Sequence record: NC_010106.1
Direction: 5' to 3' (one strand)
Source: Escherichia phage phiEcoM-GJ1
DNA: 52,975 nt
Of the stretch, positions 14,456 to 50,936 are shown one piece after another. Each line of letters begins with the position of its first letter. Position 1 is the stretch's first letter. Both the position numbers and the translations under genes were made by a program. A model generated the notes under the pieces. That model searched no databases and had not been told where the DNA came from. It saw only the letters and a list, made by a program, of their open reading frames with translations.

Positions 14456-14550
14456 GGACGAGTAGCTCAGAAGGTTTGCATTGTGCTCAGTCAGGTAGAG
14501 CAATCTGTTCGACAGATGTGTCGTTGGTTCGAATCCAACCTTGTCCGCCA
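14456..14550 (+). tRNA. tRNA-like element, non-canonical (possible degenerate or interrupted tRNA)
   Basis: Acceptor stem GGACGAG/CTTGTCC (one G-U), T-arm GTTGG-TTCGAAT-CCAAC, discriminator G plus CCA; TAGCTCAG and TCAGGTAGAGC D-arm halves are separated by a 20-nt insertion that duplicates GCTCAG; the anticodon-arm region forms a hairpin with only a 5-nt loop, so no anticodon can be assigned. Confidence 0.35.
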
Positions 14551-25815: not shown

Positions 25816-26415
25816 ATGTCTTGCATGACCCAAGTTGTTGCAGTTAAACGAGTGCATCCTAATGCGAAATTACCTGTGTACGCTACTGCTGGCGCTGCTG
25901 CTGCTGACGTTTGCACTATCTCCGATAGCACTGTTGTCATCAATCCCGGCTGCTCTGCTGTTTTCGATACTGGCCTCCAATTCGAGATTCCAATTGGATA
26001 CGAACTCAAAGTACATAGCCGTTCTGGTCATGGCTTTAAGTCTGGCATTCGCCTGGCAAACTGCACAGGAATTCTGGACTCCGATTATCGTGGCAATCTT
26101 ATGGTTAAGCTGCACAACGACTCGGACACAGCCTTTGTGGTTCAGCCAGGTGAACGTATTTGTCAGGTGCAAGTTAGTAAAGCTACTCAACACCATTTCG
26201 TTGAAGTTGACCGCTTGAATGCAACTGGTCGTGGTGAGGGTGGCTTTGGCTCAACTGGTCGTGTGGAACTTGGTCAACATGAAAGACCACACATTCCTGA
26301 TGGTTCACACTCGCACAGCATCTCTATTGTTGGTGATGGCGGTGTGAAAGTGTCTTTGCCAGGTACTGTTGAAATCACTGGTTCCCACACCCATGGGGCC
26401 GAACGTTACAAATAA
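25816..26415 (+). CDS. dut: dUTPase (trimeric type) with ~50-aa C-terminal His-box extension
   Basis: Motifs HSRSGHGFK, GILDSDYRGN, GERICQ, RGEGGFGSTGR in canonical order; extra C-terminal GSHSHSISIVGDGGVKVSLPGTVEITGSHTHGAERYK. Confidence 0.85.
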   Translation: MSCMTQVVAVKRVHPNAKLPVYATAGAAAADVCTISDSTVVINPGCSAVFDTGLQFEIPIGYELKVHSRSGHGFKSGIRLANCTGILDSDYRGNLMVKLHNDSDTAFVVQPGERICQVQVSKATQHHFVEVDRLNATGRGEGGFGSTGRVELGQHERPHIPDGSHSHSISIVGDGGVKVSLPGTVEITGSHTHGAERYK

Positions 26416-26432
26416 TCTGGAACCTATCTGAA

Positions 26433-26762
26433 ATGAAACTGTCCTCACCTGTTGTAGTAAATAACCGCAAAGTTAAATTTGCATATCTCAAGTCTAATGT
26501 CACCTCCACTGGTGGCGGGACTTATCTCACCCGTGCACTTGCAGTTCGCAACGAAACAGGTGCGGATGTTATCGTTTTCATGCTTCCTCATGGTGAAAAC
26601 ACAATCAAGAACGTCGAACGTATCAAGCGTGGGCGCGAAGATTTAATGTCGGCTGTTAAGCCGCTGATACTGCCATTTAAGATTGTGGTGGTTGTTGGTT
26701 CTACCCAAGCATATCTTGAAGATTTCTATAAAGATATGGCCTGGAGCGATATTAAATATTAA
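26433..26762 (+). CDS. hypothetical protein
   Basis: 109-aa ORF; could be a small terminase subunit by position, but there is no motif support. Confidence 0.5.
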   Translation: MKLSSPVVVNNRKVKFAYLKSNVTSTGGGTYLTRALAVRNETGADVIVFMLPHGENTIKNVERIKRGREDLMSAVKPLILPFKIVVVVGSTQAYLEDFYKDMAWSDIKY

Positions 26763-26779
26763 GCGACACGCGTAATTAG

Positions 26780-26805
26780 GGAGGCTATCTGGCCTCCTAT
26801 CTTAT
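26780..26805 (+). terminator. candidate terminator hairpin
   Basis: GGAGGC-TATCTG-GCCTCC followed by TATCTTATT; nested in an outer inverted repeat AAGCGAC...GTCGCTT. Confidence 0.4.
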
Positions 26806-26817
26806 TCGGAGTCGCTT

Positions 26818-27003
26818 ATGCGCACAATACAATGTCCTAACTGCCATTATGAAATTGCAGAAGATGATTTCATAACGCAGCAATGTCCTATCTGTGATTC
26901 ATACATGCCACTAAACCGCCTGTATTTAAAGGCCGATTCTGGTTTAGGCAGCATCATTCGCATCAATCCCGTGCAAACTCAGCCATTAGTGGATTGTGAT
27001 TAA
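26818..27003 (+). CDS. zinc-ribbon small protein
   Basis: CPNCHYEI ... CPICDSYM: two CxxC pairs; 61 aa. Confidence 0.5.
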   Translation: MRTIQCPNCHYEIAEDDFITQQCPICDSYMPLNRLYLKADSGLGSIIRINPVQTQPLVDCD

Positions 27004-27514
27004 AAACAAAGAGAACGAATCAATGTCAATACTAAGAGACAGATTGGTTCAATTACTTCACTACGACGAAGCTACTGGCATCTTTACATGGGTGCACGCC
27101 AACAGTAACAGAGTCAAAGTTGGTGATGTTGCAGGCACTATTGGAAGTGCTGGTTACATCTACATTAAGGTTGACGGGGTACGCTATGGCGCACACCAGC
27201 TTGCATTCATCTTTATGGGTGAAGAAGTTCCTGAAGTAATTGACCATGTAGATACCGTACCTTCCAATAATGCTTGGTACAATCTACGTCCTGCCACTTG
27301 CCAGAATAATTCCTATAACATTGGAATAACTTCCAGAAACACCTCTGGGATAAAGGGAGTTGGTTGGGATAAAGAGAGAAAGAAGTGGGTTGCCAAAGTC
27401 TCACTAAATGGGAAGCAACACACTCTTGGAAGATTTACATCTAAACTTGATGCTGAGGCAGCTGCCAAGCTGTTTAGAGAGAAGAACCACAAAGAATTTG
27501 CAAGGAGTCTGTGA
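26996..27514 (+). CDS. HNH-AP2 homing endonuclease (copy 3 of 3)
   Basis: HQLAFIFMGEEVPEVIDHVDTVPSNNAWYNLR ... GIKGVGWDKERKKWVAKV; immediately upstream of the terminase gene; start GTG 26996 or ATG 27023. Confidence 0.8.
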   Translation: MIKNKENESMSILRDRLVQLLHYDEATGIFTWVHANSNRVKVGDVAGTIGSAGYIYIKVDGVRYGAHQLAFIFMGEEVPEVIDHVDTVPSNNAWYNLRPATCQNNSYNIGITSRNTSGIKGVGWDKERKKWVAKVSLNGKQHTLGRFTSKLDAEAAAKLFREKNHKEFARSL

Positions 27515-44019: not shown

Positions 44020-44378
44020 TTGAGCAGGAACATCAAGCTCTAAAACAGATTGCTGAACTTCTGCCTACCGGATATGTGAAGAGTGTTCCTTACAATATAA
44101 GTAAGGATGTTTCGTTTGAGTTTAATGGTGTGACAGTTAAAATGTCTGCACTGTATTTAAACGAATACTTAAACTGCTACATGTTTGACTTGGCTTGGGG
44201 AGCAACGGATAAGATATTCGGCATCCCAATTCGGTGCGGAATTAATATCCTTAAGCAGTACAAAACTCCGCTGCCAAACATGTATGCAGCTAACACAGTA
44301 TTCCCTGGTGAAGAAGTAACAAGCTACAGACAACTCTACCTGTTCATTATTGACGAGAGTGTACTTGAACGTGGCTAG
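44016..44378 (+). CDS. baseplate protein (putative)
   Basis: 120-aa ORF, translationally coupled. Confidence 0.5.
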   Translation: MIEQEHQALKQIAELLPTGYVKSVPYNISKDVSFEFNGVTVKMSALYLNEYLNCYMFDLAWGATDKIFGIPIRCGINILKQYKTPLPNMYAANTVFPGEEVTSYRQLYLFIIDESVLERG

Positions 44379-45165
44379 TCATAACAATAACCAAAATGCT
44401 CCTGACATTAACACAAGTTATCCAGGACATATCTACAACTTCGATGATGTAACGCAGACTTGCGAAGTCCAGCTTGCAATCGAAAACCTGTTTGTGGGTT
44501 ATGCCGAAGCCTATACCTTGCAGCCGAAACAAAGGTTGCAGGGTGTCCCTGTACAGTTTATTCAGGGTGGTGGCTGGAGCTTAACCCACCCTGTTCCCGA
44601 TGGTACTCCGTGTTATGTTCATTTCTCACAACGAGGAATAGACCACTGGTTGTCCCAGAACAAAGACAGCGCAGGCTTAATAAATGGGCGTCCTGCCCCT
44701 GAGTTTAGCCAATTGTTCTCCCACAACGCTGCTGTATGCACTATCGGGACTCAACCTTTGACCAAAGTTATTCCAGGATTTAATGGTGGAGTAGCAGAGC
44801 TGCGCAATGCAGACAGAAGCCAGAGATTGACACTGCACGGTGACGGTTTAATTGAAATCATTACTGGCGCTGCGAAGATTCAAATCACAAAAGATTCGGA
44901 GATTCTTGTTGAAGTTACGTCGCAAGCTACAGTTAAAGCGCCGCAGATTACATTGGATGGCGACACGACCGTTACAAAATCCTTAACAGTGATGGGTGGC
45001 ATGGCTGTATCTGGCACTAAAGATGGCTCTACTGCGACGTTCACTGGCAACTTTAAGATGGATGGTAACATGGTTCAAACTGGTTCCCTCACTCTTAATG
45101 GTATTAAGGTTGACGGTCACACTCACACTAACCCAGAAGGCGGCGATGTTGGGCCGATGAAATAA
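44359..45165 (+). CDS. baseplate spike protein (gpV/Mu gp45-like, putative)
   Basis: About 270-aa ORF; C-terminal beta-rich region with GHTHTNPEGG His-containing apex-like motif; GTG/TTG start. Confidence 0.5.
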   Translation: MYLNVASHNNNQNAPDINTSYPGHIYNFDDVTQTCEVQLAIENLFVGYAEAYTLQPKQRLQGVPVQFIQGGGWSLTHPVPDGTPCYVHFSQRGIDHWLSQNKDSAGLINGRPAPEFSQLFSHNAAVCTIGTQPLTKVIPGFNGGVAELRNADRSQRLTLHGDGLIEIITGAAKIQITKDSEILVEVTSQATVKAPQITLDGDTTVTKSLTVMGGMAVSGTKDGSTATFTGNFKMDGNMVQTGSLTLNGIKVDGHTHTNPEGGDVGPMK

Positions 45166-46670: not shown

Positions 46671-47312
46671 ATGGCTGGTAAACATGGCTTAGACATGCTG
46701 CTTTCGCAGTATGCACTCTCACCAAACTTCCGCAAATATATTTCAATCTTCTTGGAAGAGTTTGCAGAAGTTAAGAAGGCCATGACCGACTCAGTTAAGT
46801 ACAGATACCTTGCAGATTCATTTGGCATCATGGTTGACGACCTTGCATATATTGTAGGGGCTTCTCGTACAATCTTTGGTGCCGCAGATCTTGGATACTT
46901 TGGCTTCTACGCCAACCCAGGTGCTTATCCTGCTGGCGATGATAATGACCCAGATGTTGGTGGTATTCTGAAATCAGATTACGACAGAGACTCTGGTGAC
47001 TTTGTTCGAACAGATGCGCAGTTGAAGAACGCAATACGCGCTCGAATCATTAAGATAACTGGCAACTGTACTATCGAACAGCTTATCATGTACATTGAGT
47101 TAGTTGTTGGCAGAGAACTAAAACTTCAAATCATTGAAGGGTTCCAGACAATGGACTACGTTGTTCATGAAAGATTGTCTGTGGCTGAGAAGGTTCTCAT
47201 GGCATACATGCTCCCGAACTTTAAACCTGTTGGAATTAAGATTACCCTCGCAGATACTGGAGGCAACATTGCTCTGGTTTATGGTTCTAAAGATTATCCT
47301 CCGGAGAAATAA
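46671..47312 (+). CDS. baseplate/tail-fibre-attachment protein (gpI-like, putative)
   Basis: 213-aa ORF between the J-like and fibre genes. Confidence 0.45.
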   Translation: MAGKHGLDMLLSQYALSPNFRKYISIFLEEFAEVKKAMTDSVKYRYLADSFGIMVDDLAYIVGASRTIFGAADLGYFGFYANPGAYPAGDDNDPDVGGILKSDYDRDSGDFVRTDAQLKNAIRARIIKITGNCTIEQLIMYIELVVGRELKLQIIEGFQTMDYVVHERLSVAEKVLMAYMLPNFKPVGIKITLADTGGNIALVYGSKDYPPEK

Positions 47313-48460
47313 TGACTCAACGTCTTAAGTTTAAATTTCCTTGGGCGCAAGACGGTGAAGTTGCAGACCCGGACTTGGATACCACTGCGCCAAGTTTTAT
47401 TGCAAACAGATATGCCGACTTAGGTTGGGAGGTTGAGAAGCCACCTAACGAGTGGCAGAACTTCTTATCTCAAATTAGTGATTTGAAGATTATCTCCCTT
47501 CTGTTTGGTGGCATTGCTGAGTTTGATTCAAGTGTGACTTATCAGGTTGGTGCAGTCTCTTCACTGAATGGTGTTGTTCGTATTAATACTTCCACGGGTT
47601 GGGAAGAGATAATGGACCTCAAGCAGGTTGACTATCTTAACGACGTTAGCAACTTGAGGTCTATCTATGATAACCACTTGGCTGCAACCAACCCGCACAA
47701 AGAAACTGTAGACACAATCACAGACAAAACTTATAACAAGTTTGCGATAGATAGTAGTTTTGGAAGTGCCACAGACCCAAGAACTATCGTGTACCACAAA
47801 CTACAGATGGGCCGTGTTCACCAAGAAACTCCCGAACAACTTGGAACACTTCCAACATCTGGTGGTAAGTTTACTGGTCCAGTGTCGCTGCTTGGTGGAA
47901 TGAAGTTTGGAACAAACATCACAATTCGACTGAACCCAGGAAATGGGAGAATTGAGATGCGTGCAGGTAATAGGATTCTGTCTATTGATGCACTTGGCAA
48001 TGTTCTGTGGAGCATAGTTGGTGGTGAAGAATATCCAGTAATGACGGAATTGAACTACTCAGAATTCCAGATTCGTTGGGGAAACAGGTTCGCACTACCG
48101 CAACCATACCTCGATATGAACATGAAAACATCTATCAACGATGCTATGTCGGTTCGTGGGTGGACTATTAGTACGTCGGATGCTCCAGTATTTAACCCCA
48201 AAGGTGGGATTAAAGTTGATGACAACACAATAACCTTTGAAGGTTTTGATGTTAACTGCCCAACATCAATCGTCATGTATGGAAGAGATGCTGCTGGAAA
48301 TCTTATTACAGCAAAGTCCGTAATGGCTCCATCTGCCGGATACACTTCAATGGCGACCCTGTTGACAAACATGGGATTCACTTCTGCCGTTTGGGTTGAA
48401 AGAATTACTTGCTACCCAACTCTTACCGCATATCAACAAACAATGTTAGTGAGGCCATAA
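47312..48460 (+). CDS. tail fibre protein (putative)
   Basis: 382-aa ORF with GGAG RBS downstream of the baseplate genes. Confidence 0.5.
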   Translation: MTQRLKFKFPWAQDGEVADPDLDTTAPSFIANRYADLGWEVEKPPNEWQNFLSQISDLKIISLLFGGIAEFDSSVTYQVGAVSSLNGVVRINTSTGWEEIMDLKQVDYLNDVSNLRSIYDNHLAATNPHKETVDTITDKTYNKFAIDSSFGSATDPRTIVYHKLQMGRVHQETPEQLGTLPTSGGKFTGPVSLLGGMKFGTNITIRLNPGNGRIEMRAGNRILSIDALGNVLWSIVGGEEYPVMTELNYSEFQIRWGNRFALPQPYLDMNMKTSINDAMSVRGWTISTSDAPVFNPKGGIKVDDNTITFEGFDVNCPTSIVMYGRDAAGNLITAKSVMAPSAGYTSMATLLTNMGFTSAVWVERITCYPTLTAYQQTMLVRP

Positions 48461-49857
48461 TGGCGATTCGTCCTAAACTGAACCGAGTCTGGACTTCAAA
48501 CAACTCTGTCGCAAGACGTGACCCAGGTGATGCGAAATATCTCCAGGGTTGGGTTGCAGAGATTCCAACTTACCAGGTTCTTAACTACCTACAATATAAG
48601 ATTGACACCACAATGCTTGCCCAAGCGGAGCGGGGAATCTTTGAGTGGGGTGATGATGTAAGTTATGGCGTTGGTAGTTTGGCTTGGGACGAAACAAACA
48701 AAACGATTTATGTTTGTACTGCAACCAACCCAAGTAAAACCTTACGCCCAAGTGCCAACTCTGCACAGTGGAGTCCAAGCTCCATCCAAGTTTCTCGTGC
48801 AAATTACGACTCAATTGTTGCAGCAATCAATGCACATATTTCAGACGTAACTACAAACCCACACCGAGTAACTGCTGCACAAATTGGTGCATATAACAAA
48901 GCAGAGCTGAATGCAATTGTTGCAAACTATCGTGCAATGGTTTTAGCACACACCACAGATTACAACAACCCACACCAACTCACTGCAACTCAGGTTGGTG
49001 CTGTTCCTGTAACTGGTGGTGCATACACTGGTGAAGTTACTTTCACAACCGTGTATCTGAATGATTCCAAGACTGCCCAGATTGTTAATGACGGTGGTCT
49101 GTATCTTCGCAATGGTAGCTACTATCTTGGAATCAGCGGGACCACAGGAAATCCAGAGGCAGGAACTGCTGCAAGCAAGTCCCGGATAGTCACAGAACTC
49201 ACCTTCCCAGACTTGAAAGCTGCACAAGAGGCTGAATATGCGGTAGAAGCGCCAGACTATGAAATGGCACTAATAGGTTCTGTAAACATACTTCGTGGCA
49301 CAGGAACATTCAGTACCGGAAGCTCCGAGCCTATGTACTTGGCATCATCTGGTGATGCCCTAACATTCGACAGCTCACCAACCAGCCCATCACAATCATT
49401 CAACGCCTCTTCACAACTTCCTGCTGGCTCGAGTATGACGGTCTGTGCCGATGTTATGAGGGTGTCACAGTCTGATACAAGTGATGGCAACTGGCAGCTA
49501 AGTTTCGGCACCGCAGATTTCAATATCACCATTGGGTACAATGGGTATACGACCATTAGGTACAGGAACCTCGCAGGAAATATTGCTACAATATTGCAGG
49601 GTGTAATCTCTCAAGATTTGAAAACTGTAGGTGTGTGGAACAGGGTGTCGGCAACACTTTCTGGAAGCACTATGAAGGTGTTTGTAAACGGTGCACTGCT
49701 ATTCTCCATAGAGCAAGAAGTGGGTGTTGCAGTGGGGAGAGCGCCATTTATAACTAAATGGGCTATGGTTGGGGCTACCACAAACTCTAGAATGTCTATT
49801 AGGTCTTTTAGGTTGTGGAACTCGGCACTAACAGATAAACAGATTTCAACTTTATAG
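48460..49857 (+). CDS. tail fibre/receptor-binding protein with C-terminal lectin-like (LamG/concanavalin-like) region
   Basis: Start ATG 48460 after GAGG; the C-terminal ~200 aa are a beta-sandwich-type Ser/Thr/Gly-rich sequence ending ...RSFRLWNSALTDKQIS. Confidence 0.5.
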   Translation: MAIRPKLNRVWTSNNSVARRDPGDAKYLQGWVAEIPTYQVLNYLQYKIDTTMLAQAERGIFEWGDDVSYGVGSLAWDETNKTIYVCTATNPSKTLRPSANSAQWSPSSIQVSRANYDSIVAAINAHISDVTTNPHRVTAAQIGAYNKAELNAIVANYRAMVLAHTTDYNNPHQLTATQVGAVPVTGGAYTGEVTFTTVYLNDSKTAQIVNDGGLYLRNGSYYLGISGTTGNPEAGTAASKSRIVTELTFPDLKAAQEAEYAVEAPDYEMALIGSVNILRGTGTFSTGSSEPMYLASSGDALTFDSSPTSPSQSFNASSQLPAGSSMTVCADVMRVSQSDTSDGNWQLSFGTADFNITIGYNGYTTIRYRNLAGNIATILQGVISQDLKTVGVWNRVSATLSGSTMKVFVNGALLFSIEQEVGVAVGRAPFITKWAMVGATTNSRMSIRSFRLWNSALTDKQISTL

Positions 49858-49865
49858 GATTCAAA

Positions 49866-50936
49866 ATGGCTAAAGGTTATTCTTTAGATGCGTTGGTGAA
49901 TGAGCACTACATAAAGTCTCGTACCGGCCTGGGTAATATAAGTATAGACACTATCACGGGAATGGATAGTGTTGGAGTATATTACCAATCACGCAACGAT
50001 TATGCCACCCTTGCAAATAAATATCCTCCAGGTGCTAATGCAGGTACTCTTGAAGTGTTGCCCCATAATGCCAACGTTGGCAGGGTAATGCAACGTTATA
50101 CAAACTTTAGTAATAAGCGTATGTGGGTGAGAAGTCAGAATGGCACGGTATCGGATGCTAACTTTGACGAGTGGACTGAGTTCGTTAACATGAACAACAT
50201 CTACAACGCAATCTATCCGATTGGCATTGTCGTCAAGTTTGACAACGCCACCAACCCGAACAACAACTTCACCGGAACTGTGTGGGAACAAATCATTGAT
50301 GGTCGTGTTGCCCGTGCTGCAACTGGTCCGGAAGCTGGGACGGCTGATGGTCAGATTGGTTCAATAGCTGGGTCCGATACAGCCAACATTGCTGTAACCA
50401 ACCTACCAGGCCACACACACGGGATGCAGAACCACACCCACGGCATCGCATCCCACTCCCACACAATGGCCCACACCCACACCATCAACCACGACCACGG
50501 TGCGGTAACATCTAGCTCTTCTGGTGCTCACACGCACAGCGTTAGTGGCACTGCCGCCTCTGCTGGTGCTCACCAACATACAGAAGGCTCTCCATTTACA
50601 GGAGATGTCAACTTTGGCACTACCACAAGCACCAGCAAGGACAACATATCTGATTGGCTCTACAGCCCGTCTACCAGGTATCCGCTAACTTCGTCCTCTG
50701 GTGCACACACCCACTCTGTGAGTGGTACAGCCGCCTCTGCTGGTGCTCATACTCACTCTGTTGACTTACCTAACTTCACAGGTACAAGTGGAGGCTCCAG
50801 CACAGGTAACACAGGCGGTACGGCACTGACTACTGGTGGTCCTAGCAACAACACTACTACCTCAACTGGTGACGGCACAGCGTTCGATGTTCGCAACGCC
50901 TCACATTACTATGCCTTCTGGAAACGGGTGGCTTAA
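49866..50936 (+). CDS. tail fibre protein with His-box (HxH) repeats
   Basis: GHTHGMQNHTHGIASHSHTMAHTHTINHDHG plus two copies of SSSGAHTHSVSGTAASAGAH; HxH boxes are typical of phage fibre proteins. Confidence 0.6.
   Translation: MAKGYSLDALVNEHYIKSRTGLGNISIDTITGMDSVGVYYQSRNDYATLANKYPPGANAGTLEVLPHNANVGRVMQRYTNFSNKRMWVRSQNGTVSDANFDEWTEFVNMNNIYNAIYPIGIVVKFDNATNPNNNFTGTVWEQIIDGRVARAATGPEAGTADGQIGSIAGSDTANIAVTNLPGHTHGMQNHTHGIASHSHTMAHTHTINHDHGAVTSSSSGAHTHSVSGTAASAGAHQHTEGSPFTGDVNFGTTTSTSKDNISDWLYSPSTRYPLTSSSGAHTHSVSGTAASAGAHTHSVDLPNFTGTSGGSSTGNTGGTALTTGGPSNNTTTSTGDGTAFDVRNASHYYAFWKRVA

Follow-up and report, generated by a model that had tools for sequence, protein, structure and literature searches.

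Among homotrimeric dUTPases (PF00692), the enzyme of Escherichia coli and the other solved representatives end one to three residues past motif V, the last catalytic motif. Extra residues past motif V are tolerated by the fold, and the Drosophila enzyme, for instance, carries a species-specific C-terminal tail of 28 residues. A different arrangement is found in the Duts of the staphylococcal phages phi11 and 80alpha, where a conserved trimeric core is combined with a hypervariable, allele-like segment; this segment, motif VI, is inserted between motifs IV and V, and the SaPI repressor Stl is bound through it.

HxH histidine cages are a hallmark of virion fibres and spikes. Boxes of the form G-x-H-x-H-S/T-phi-S/T-phi (phi, hydrophobic residue) are encountered in T4 gp37 (2XGF), gp12, R-pyocin, P2 gpV and the phi92 apex, and are represented by PF03335. 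In T-even phages, His boxes reportedly mediate module shuffling in the distal tail-fibre genes gp37/gp38 (a finding credited to Tetart et al. in 1998). Where a fibre or spike is trimeric, the HxH copies of the three symmetry-related chains surround Fe (Zn in gp12) with six histidines in octahedral geometry; the role proposed for this cage is to stabilise the trimer or to hold the register of the chains (PMC6116203; bioRxiv 10.1101/2023.02.25.529910). Such cages are built from three identical chains and not from mixed trimers (bioRxiv 10.1101/2023.02.25.529910).

The window considered here, 52,975 nucleotides from Escherichia phage phiEcoM-GJ1 (NC_010106.1), encodes a dUTPase that agrees with those of E. 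coli and phage T5 in the motifs, fold and length of its core, and to which 51 more residues with two HxH boxes are attached past motif V. As in fibres and spikes, the box has the G-x-H-x-H-S/T-phi-S/T-phi form, is repeated within the chain and stands on a carrier predicted to be a three-fold homotrimer; unlike in fibres and spikes, the carrier is a cytoplasmic enzyme of nucleotide metabolism and displays two boxes only. As in T-even phages, conserved box stretches flank swapped segments in near-identical genomes, whereas the gene concerned here encodes an enzyme, lies 24 kb from the fibre genes and displays no detectable exchange with them. Moonlighting phage dUTPases were invoked as an analogy in an earlier note made from this DNA alone. 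The likeness to the staphylococcal Duts holds for the hypervariable accessory segment on a conserved core and fails for its position, as variability begins past motif V here; no motif VI-type insertion was found in the core, and the protein is therefore not a staphylococcal-type moonlighting Dut. The enzyme itself is known; what is new is a clade-specific, fibre-type accessory module carried by it, and no description of HxH tails on dUTPases was found in the literature.

The dUTPase gene and its surroundings

The gene occupies positions 25816..26415 of the window (+ strand; ATG start, stop codon 26413-26415) and, according to the open reading frame list and the sequence, encodes 199 amino acids. 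Residues 16-148 matched Pfam family PF00692 with a score of 80.7 bits, the cutoff being 22 (E 1.1e-22), the reading frame matched PHROG 135 (dUTPase) with an E value of 8.5e-63, and the annotation was the same in Carltongylesvirus genomes that are 93-96% identical. The catalytic core (residues 1-148, 25816..26259, +) contains all five motifs of trimeric dUTPases, which the earlier note had already recognised and which can be read in the translation: motif I, AGAAAADV (residues 25-32, 25888-25911); motif II, RSG (69-71, 26020-26028); motif III with the catalytic Asp, GILDSDYRGN (85-94, 26068-26097); motif IV, GERICQ (112-117, 26149-26166); and the P-loop-like motif V, RGEGGFGSTG, which ends at G148 (139-148, 26230-26259), all on the + strand. 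These motifs were invariant or nearly so across 52 homologues, and the whole core was nearly invariant among nine close phages.

An AF2 monomer model based on the 52-sequence alignment displayed pLDDT values above 90 over most of the core. Compared by Foldseek with the dUTPases of E. coli and H. pylori, the core model gave target-normalised TM scores of 0.85-0.93. The jelly-roll beta fold matched entries 6HDE, 8HRV and 1DUP at E values of about 1e-13, as well as the Duts of phage T5 (8QKY) and 80alpha (5CCT); the fold thus matched is that of a three-fold homotrimer. None of the solved dUTPase structures among the Foldseek matches covered the tail part. By profile, motifs and fold, the product is a member of the trimeric-type dUTPase family.

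The 2-kb region around the gene was 93-96% identical to Escherichia phages of genus Carltongylesvirus (Chaseviridae, Cleopatravirinae), namely BSBP01, JL1, SA91KD, SKA49, ST32, flopper and Mangalitsa. Record PP952070.1, entitled 'Staphylococcus phage Pel53' (host S. hyicus), displayed about 93% DNA identity to the E. coli phages of this genus and had the fibre in common with them; its host label is probably wrong, or the record reflects contamination. On the 5' side, dut is preceded by genes for an exonuclease, an HNH endonuclease, a DNA ligase and a dNMP kinase. On the 3' side follow the gene for a 109-aa protein (phrog_18523, 26433-26762), a terminator-like hairpin (26779-26798), a 61-aa zinc-ribbon protein, an HNH-AP2 endonuclease and the large terminase. 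According to this gene order, the dUTPase gene closes a replication and nucleotide-metabolism block.

Two further features of the genome deserve mention. The HNH-AP2 homing-endonuclease-like gene (26996-27514, +; PHROG 99, E 1.3e-61) sits between the 61-aa zinc-ribbon frame and the terminase start at 27511 and overlaps both. In BSBP01, SA91KD, EcoM1, flopper, FXie and ST32 the 61-aa frame is separated from the terminase start by 20 nt, so that the HNH-AP2 gene looks like a mobile insertion of roughly 0.5 kb. A single tRNA gene was detected at 14456-14547 (+; Rfam, 41.8 bits); its length of 92 nt, against a model of 71 positions, indicates that the variable arm is long or that an insert is present.

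The C-terminal tail and its HxH boxes

Past motif V the dUTPase continues for 51 residues, RVELGQHERPHIPDGSHSHSISIVGDGGVKVSLPGTVEITGSHTHGAERYK, arranged as RVELGQHERPHIPD-GSHSHS-ISIVGDGGVKVSLPGTVEIT-GSHTHG-AERYK, in agreement with the earlier note, which had put the extension at about 50 residues and singled out GSHSHS and GSHTHG. The linker (RVELGQHERPHIPD, allele A; residues 149-162, 26260..26301, +) belongs to one of two allele classes at the nucleotide level. It is followed by His box 1, GSHSHS (163-168, 26302..26319, +), read directly, whose second histidine was conserved more strongly than any other position of the aligned tails. The body (ISIVGDGGVKVSLPGTVEIT, allele A; 169-188, 26320..26379, +), also a direct reading, consists of three short amphipathic, beta-strand-like segments with G-rich or PG turns between them. 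His box 2 and the C-terminus, GSHTHGAERYK, span residues 189-199 (26380..26412, +), of which the box itself, GSHTHG, takes up residues 189-194 (nt 26380-26397).

The tail ends alike in dUTPases whose cores were only 57-67% identical, as in GAHDHGANRYK, GSHDHGAHFYK, ...NYKP (GEQNYKP) and ...VYK. The terminal ...YK or ...YKP, represented in the window by R-Y-K at 26404-26412, was also kept in relatives P0029, P0040, P0035, P0038 and P0042, while the rest of their tails was unrelated. A frameshift or read-through artefact was considered as the origin of the tail and rejected, since the frame is open and the annotation is identical in several independent genomes. No RNA element was detected in the tail-coding DNA by Rfam, promoter and terminator scans.

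Two sets of dUTPases were used to follow the boxes, a tail being counted as long when at least 14 residues followed motif V. The first set comprised the best 120 cluster representatives from a search of 5.8 billion proteins, the 48 closest of which mostly came from the phage family of the window. At least one HxH was present in 25 of the 31 long tails among these 48, against none of the seven long tails among the other 72. The second set comprised 146 more diverse dUTPases from 1.84 billion 50%-identity representatives; motif V was located in 131 of them, and none of the 24 long tails found on these carried HxH.

The boxes exceeded chance expectation: 41 HxH were counted in 1079 tail residues of the 48 related representatives versus none in 7265 core residues, and when each tail was shuffled, 10.5 +/- 2.9 were obtained and never more than 22 in 5000 rounds. 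The i/i+2 spacing is therefore selected beyond mere richness in histidine. The consensus of 33 distinct boxes was [D/phi]-G-[S/A]-H-[S/T/N]-H-[S/G]-phi-[S/T]-phi; as read from the sequence, this corresponds to the register of a beta strand, with the two histidines and the hydrophobic residues after them predicted on one face.

When the cores were arranged in a neighbour-joining tree, members with HxH tails fell into at least four subclades, core identity being as low as 57%, and were interleaved with tail-less members; the outgroup was devoid of such tails. Some natural tails of the clade displayed a single box or none, and the second box of SKA49 was broken (HTR). Loci of distant members were syntenic, with ligase, dNMP kinase, dUTPase, a small variable frame, the 109-aa gene and terminase in this order. 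An old tail that was lost repeatedly is the simpler history. HxH boxes on dUTPases are confined to this phage-family clade and conserved within it. The interpretation given in the earlier note was partly supported. Its view of the extension as atypical and of fibre-box type holds: the solved dUTPases end shortly past motif V, and while relatives are often tailed, it is the HxH box, with its spacing, that forms the conserved element of their tails. The metal binding, trimer-tip interactions or second function that the note also envisaged are possibilities.

In the AF2 monomer, residues 148-199 remained below pLDDT 50, and strands appeared in the body at 178-180 and 184-186 with low confidence; an obligate inter-chain fold and disorder fit such values equally well. 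The segments SISIVGDG, GVKVSLPG and TVEITGSH follow an eight-residue rhythm, which by analogy recalls triple beta-helices and may serve as a lead.

The reading proposed here is that of a homotrimeric dUTPase with a swappable tail stalk held by two His6 metal cages; taken as a whole it is tentative and falls somewhat short of an even chance. The predicted homotrimer would clear dUTP while the phage replicates its DNA. The accessory tail, which follows directly on motif V, comprises a 14-residue linker, a box of the form G-S-H-x-H-S-phi-S-phi, a beta part of about 20 residues, the second box and the terminal ...RYK. Given the three-fold symmetry of the enzyme, its tails are predicted to converge at or close to the symmetry axis, where they would intertwine into a short beta stalk with a His6 metal cage at either end. 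With two histidines from each chain, every box would give a six-histidine cage for Fe2+ or Zn2+, an arrangement that resembles those of T4 gp37, R-pyocin fibres and the P2 and phi92 spikes. The C-termini of trimeric dUTPases emerge peripherally, near the active sites; the 14-residue linkers would therefore have to reach the axis without blocking the closure of motif V. We infer that the tail would trimerise and bind metal and that it may have a downstream role: the stalk might tether the three motif-V arms, stabilise the trimer and project a swappable surface, possibly one for strain-specific interaction.

Tail alleles, selection and the slot 3' of dut

The tail proved to be a mosaic. Compared with the window at the nucleotide level, relatives displayed 96-98% identity in the core, 83-90% (allele A class) or 55-57% in the linker, and 89-93% (allele A) or 56% (allele B) in the body. 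Box 1 displayed 94-100% identity in five of the six full-length relatives and 89% in BSBP01, ST32 being excepted, and it kept this identity even where both flanks were at about 56%. Box 2 and the C-terminal end were 79-97% identical in all full-length relatives. Linker allele B, QYDPSLIVPSN, was found in SKA49, P0003, P0009 and P0010. Linkers A and B and bodies A and B were encountered in all four possible combinations, distributed over the window, P0003, SA91KD with P0004, and SKA49 with P0009; additional body alleles and deletions were found in P0010, P0013 and ST32. These swaps of linker and body occurred among phages with cores about 97% identical. To judge from the alignments, the boxes, which are kept at the DNA level, behave as joints between linker and body cassettes that phages exchange with one another.

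Synonymous divergence was also unequal along the gene. Between the window and its relatives, the core displayed pS values of 0.07-0.16 and pN/pS ratios of 0.02-0.14, and the tail 0.26-0.63 and 0.13-0.65, respectively. The synonymous divergence of the tail was thus three to four times that of the core, which indicates that the tail alleles either predate the DNA around them or were imported into it. With respect to the two nearest alleles, the tail codons displayed a significant synonymous excess (Fisher p 1.5e-4 and pN/pS 0.13 for BSBP01; p 2.3e-4 and 0.18 for JL1). The tail is therefore under purifying selection as a protein.

The tail was truncated or absent in about two thirds of the isolates: it was complete in about seven and truncated in about eight, such as flopper, EcoM1, Bp7 and Bp10, whereas at least 15, among them all Yersinia records, were devoid of it. 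In Mangalitsa, the dUTPase ends at GRV-stop and the next gene follows 20 nt on. All isolates of this census are plaque-forming, and the tail is therefore dispensable in the laboratory; the stalk would accordingly have to be regarded as a swappable add-on, dispensable for catalysis and plaque formation.

Immediately past the tail lies a variable slot, the far edge of which is formed in the window by a short spacer (26416..26432, +) followed by the 109-aa gene, whose ribosome-binding site and start are conserved; the GGAACCTATCTGAAATG junction was conserved at this edge. In relatives the slot was empty or contained a T7 Gp5.9-like RecBCD-inhibitor gene or another small reading frame, and it is a counter-defence or accessory hot spot. 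The T7 Gp5.9-like gene (PF25708, E 2e-11) was located directly 3' of dut in flopper (L006:1656-1862) and ST32 (L008:1723-1929) and at L019:2704-2889 and L020:3535-3693; FXie-2024a displayed another frame of 111 aa in the slot, which is empty in the window (26416-26432).

These observations bear on two explanations other than the caged stalk. According to the first, the tail would be flexible and not trimerised, its histidines binding metal or a partner chain by chain, and it would have a part in interaction or regulation that differs between strains, for example by modulating motif-V closure or by binding a host, satellite or defence protein, as staphylococcal motif VI does with Stl. The low AF2 confidence is in line with such a segment, as are the hypervariable sequence and length beside an invariant core, the high pS of the tail, which fits old alleles kept or exchanged under diversifying pressure, and the neighbouring slot, where the anti-RecBCD gene of relatives marks a counter-defence neighbourhood. 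Long C-terminal tails of other kinds are moreover common, being carried by 24 of the 131 wider dUTPases; those lack HxH, unlike the tail considered here. Against this explanation, the conserved element is an inter-chain cage motif with a continued beta register, which generic richness in histidine would not produce, and the tail has no known partner. We hold this explanation to be doubtful, albeit worth serious consideration. It partly overlaps the stalk reading, because a folded stalk could itself be an interaction surface.

According to the second, the tail would be a functionless by-product of the recombination hot spot 3' of dut, that is, a translated spacer or fibre-like scrap which became joined to the enzyme by read-through and is tolerated. 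Its dispensability would agree with this, since dUTPases of the Mangalitsa type and of all Yersinia records end at GRV and those of the flopper, EcoM1 and Bp7 types are truncated; so would the indels and unrelated small frames at the same position and the pN/pS ratio, relaxed relative to the core. The significant synonymous excess in the tail codons speaks against it, however, as do the reading frame, which was open in every full-length allele, and the conservation of the boxes and of the ...YK end across several subclades with cores only 57-67% identical. Nor does the fibre gene display the DNA similarity expected of a donor of such scrap. This explanation is disfavoured by the selection and distribution data, and we consider it improbable.

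Fibre-type boxes and significance of the tail

The phage also uses HxH boxes in a gp37-like fibre and in a phi92-type spike. As the earlier note had pointed out, the box type of the dUTPase recurs in the fibre frame at 49866-50936, where nine boxes of the G/A-H-x-H type were counted. This frame matched the tip of T4 gp37, an iron-binding needle (PDB 2XGF, E 0.0045). The T4 gp37 boxes GDHSHSVGI, GSHGHTITV and GNHSHTFSF share the format of the dUTPase tail, in which GSHSHSISI and GSHTHG follow the G-x-H-x-H-plus-alternating-strand pattern of fibre boxes. The tail aligned with the gp37 boxes at a BLASTP E value of about 0.1, and with the fibre of the window at a tblastn E value of 0.009, the similarity being restricted to the boxes. 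The Pfam profile Phage_fiber (PF03335) covered tail residues 16-24, that is box 1, with 16.9 bits against a gathering score of 20 (E 0.0067). It matched four of 22 tails (best E 0.0022) and was the only family to recur among them, in each case below threshold. A database search with the tail profile returned weak matches only (E 2.7-5.4), to small fibre fragments. The tail alone found no candidate among 5.8 billion proteins, and no fibre was found by PDB sequence searches with the tail or its profile. The dUTPase tail is not filed as a fibre repeat here because the PF03335 score is below threshold, the carrier is an enzyme of the replication module rather than part of a virion fibre or spike, and the cage is a prediction.

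Recent gene conversion from the fibre gene was rejected, since the tail-coding DNA had only chance words of 9-15 nt in common with the fibre gene and the rest of the window. Co-variation of tail and HxH fibre was likewise rejected: the fibre was equally present in phages with a tail-less dUTPase, and its best match (71%) was that of the tail-less Mangalitsa. Tail and fibre therefore assort independently. At the sequence level, their resemblance is one of motif type and does not reflect recent common descent or co-evolution.

Several structural genes of the window were characterised alongside. The fibre at 49866-50936 (+) displayed a Gp10_C-like collar and at most 71% protein identity to any fibre in 50,697 phage records, and therefore represents a new allele for receptor binding; within it, SSSGAHTHSVSGTAASAGAH(Q/T)H is duplicated, the copies lying at about 50520-50580 and 50697-50757. 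The 271-aa frame at 44350-45165 (+) combined a phi92-spike-type N-terminal domain (PF18352, E 4e-17) with a GHTHT box 13 residues from its C-terminus; it probably encodes the central baseplate spike, with a predicted iron-loaded HxH apex. Two adjacent paralogous fibre genes, at 47312-48460 and 48409-49857 (+), both belong to PHROG 8147, the second having a C-terminal concanavalin/laminin-G-like lectin domain (PF13385, E 3.5e-8).

A third explanation, that the tail docks the dUTPase on the baseplate, fibre or spike of the virion or on assembling fibres and so has a structural or assembly-associated role, could draw on the box type common to the phage's own fibre and spike and on the weak profile matches, which were to fibre fragments only; it is disfavoured by gene position, dut being the last gene of the replication and nucleotide-metabolism block and lying upstream of the hairpin (26779-26798) and terminase, and by the independent assortment of tail and fibre alleles, tail-less phages keeping the fibre, and as no virion proteomics naming dUTPase was found in the literature and HxH cages are made of three identical chains and not of mixed trimers, we regard it as highly improbable.

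The caged stalk remains our preferred reading, and a stronger version of it may be envisaged. The tail would then be an Fe- or Zn-loaded trimeric mini-fibre on the dUTPase axis with a second, strain-specific job, such as recognising or evading a host, satellite or defence protein, and the boxes would be joints of specificity cassettes. We think this version unlikely; if it were true, the adhesin-shuffling logic of tail fibres would have been transplanted onto a cytoplasmic enzyme.

The same conserved and selected box, on a three-fold metabolic enzyme, would be the first case found outside the virion. What the HxH cage does is an open question (bioRxiv 10.1101/2023.02.25.529910). The dUTPase tail would offer a small, soluble and easily purified model in which its role in register, stability or folding could be approached, and the natural full, truncated and absent alleles in plaque-forming phages that are about 95% identical provide ready-made controls. 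A hypervariable accessory segment was the feature behind the discovery of the staphylococcal moonlighting Duts, and with the present tail a family of phages of Gram-negative bacteria joins the short list of those whose dUTPases carry one.
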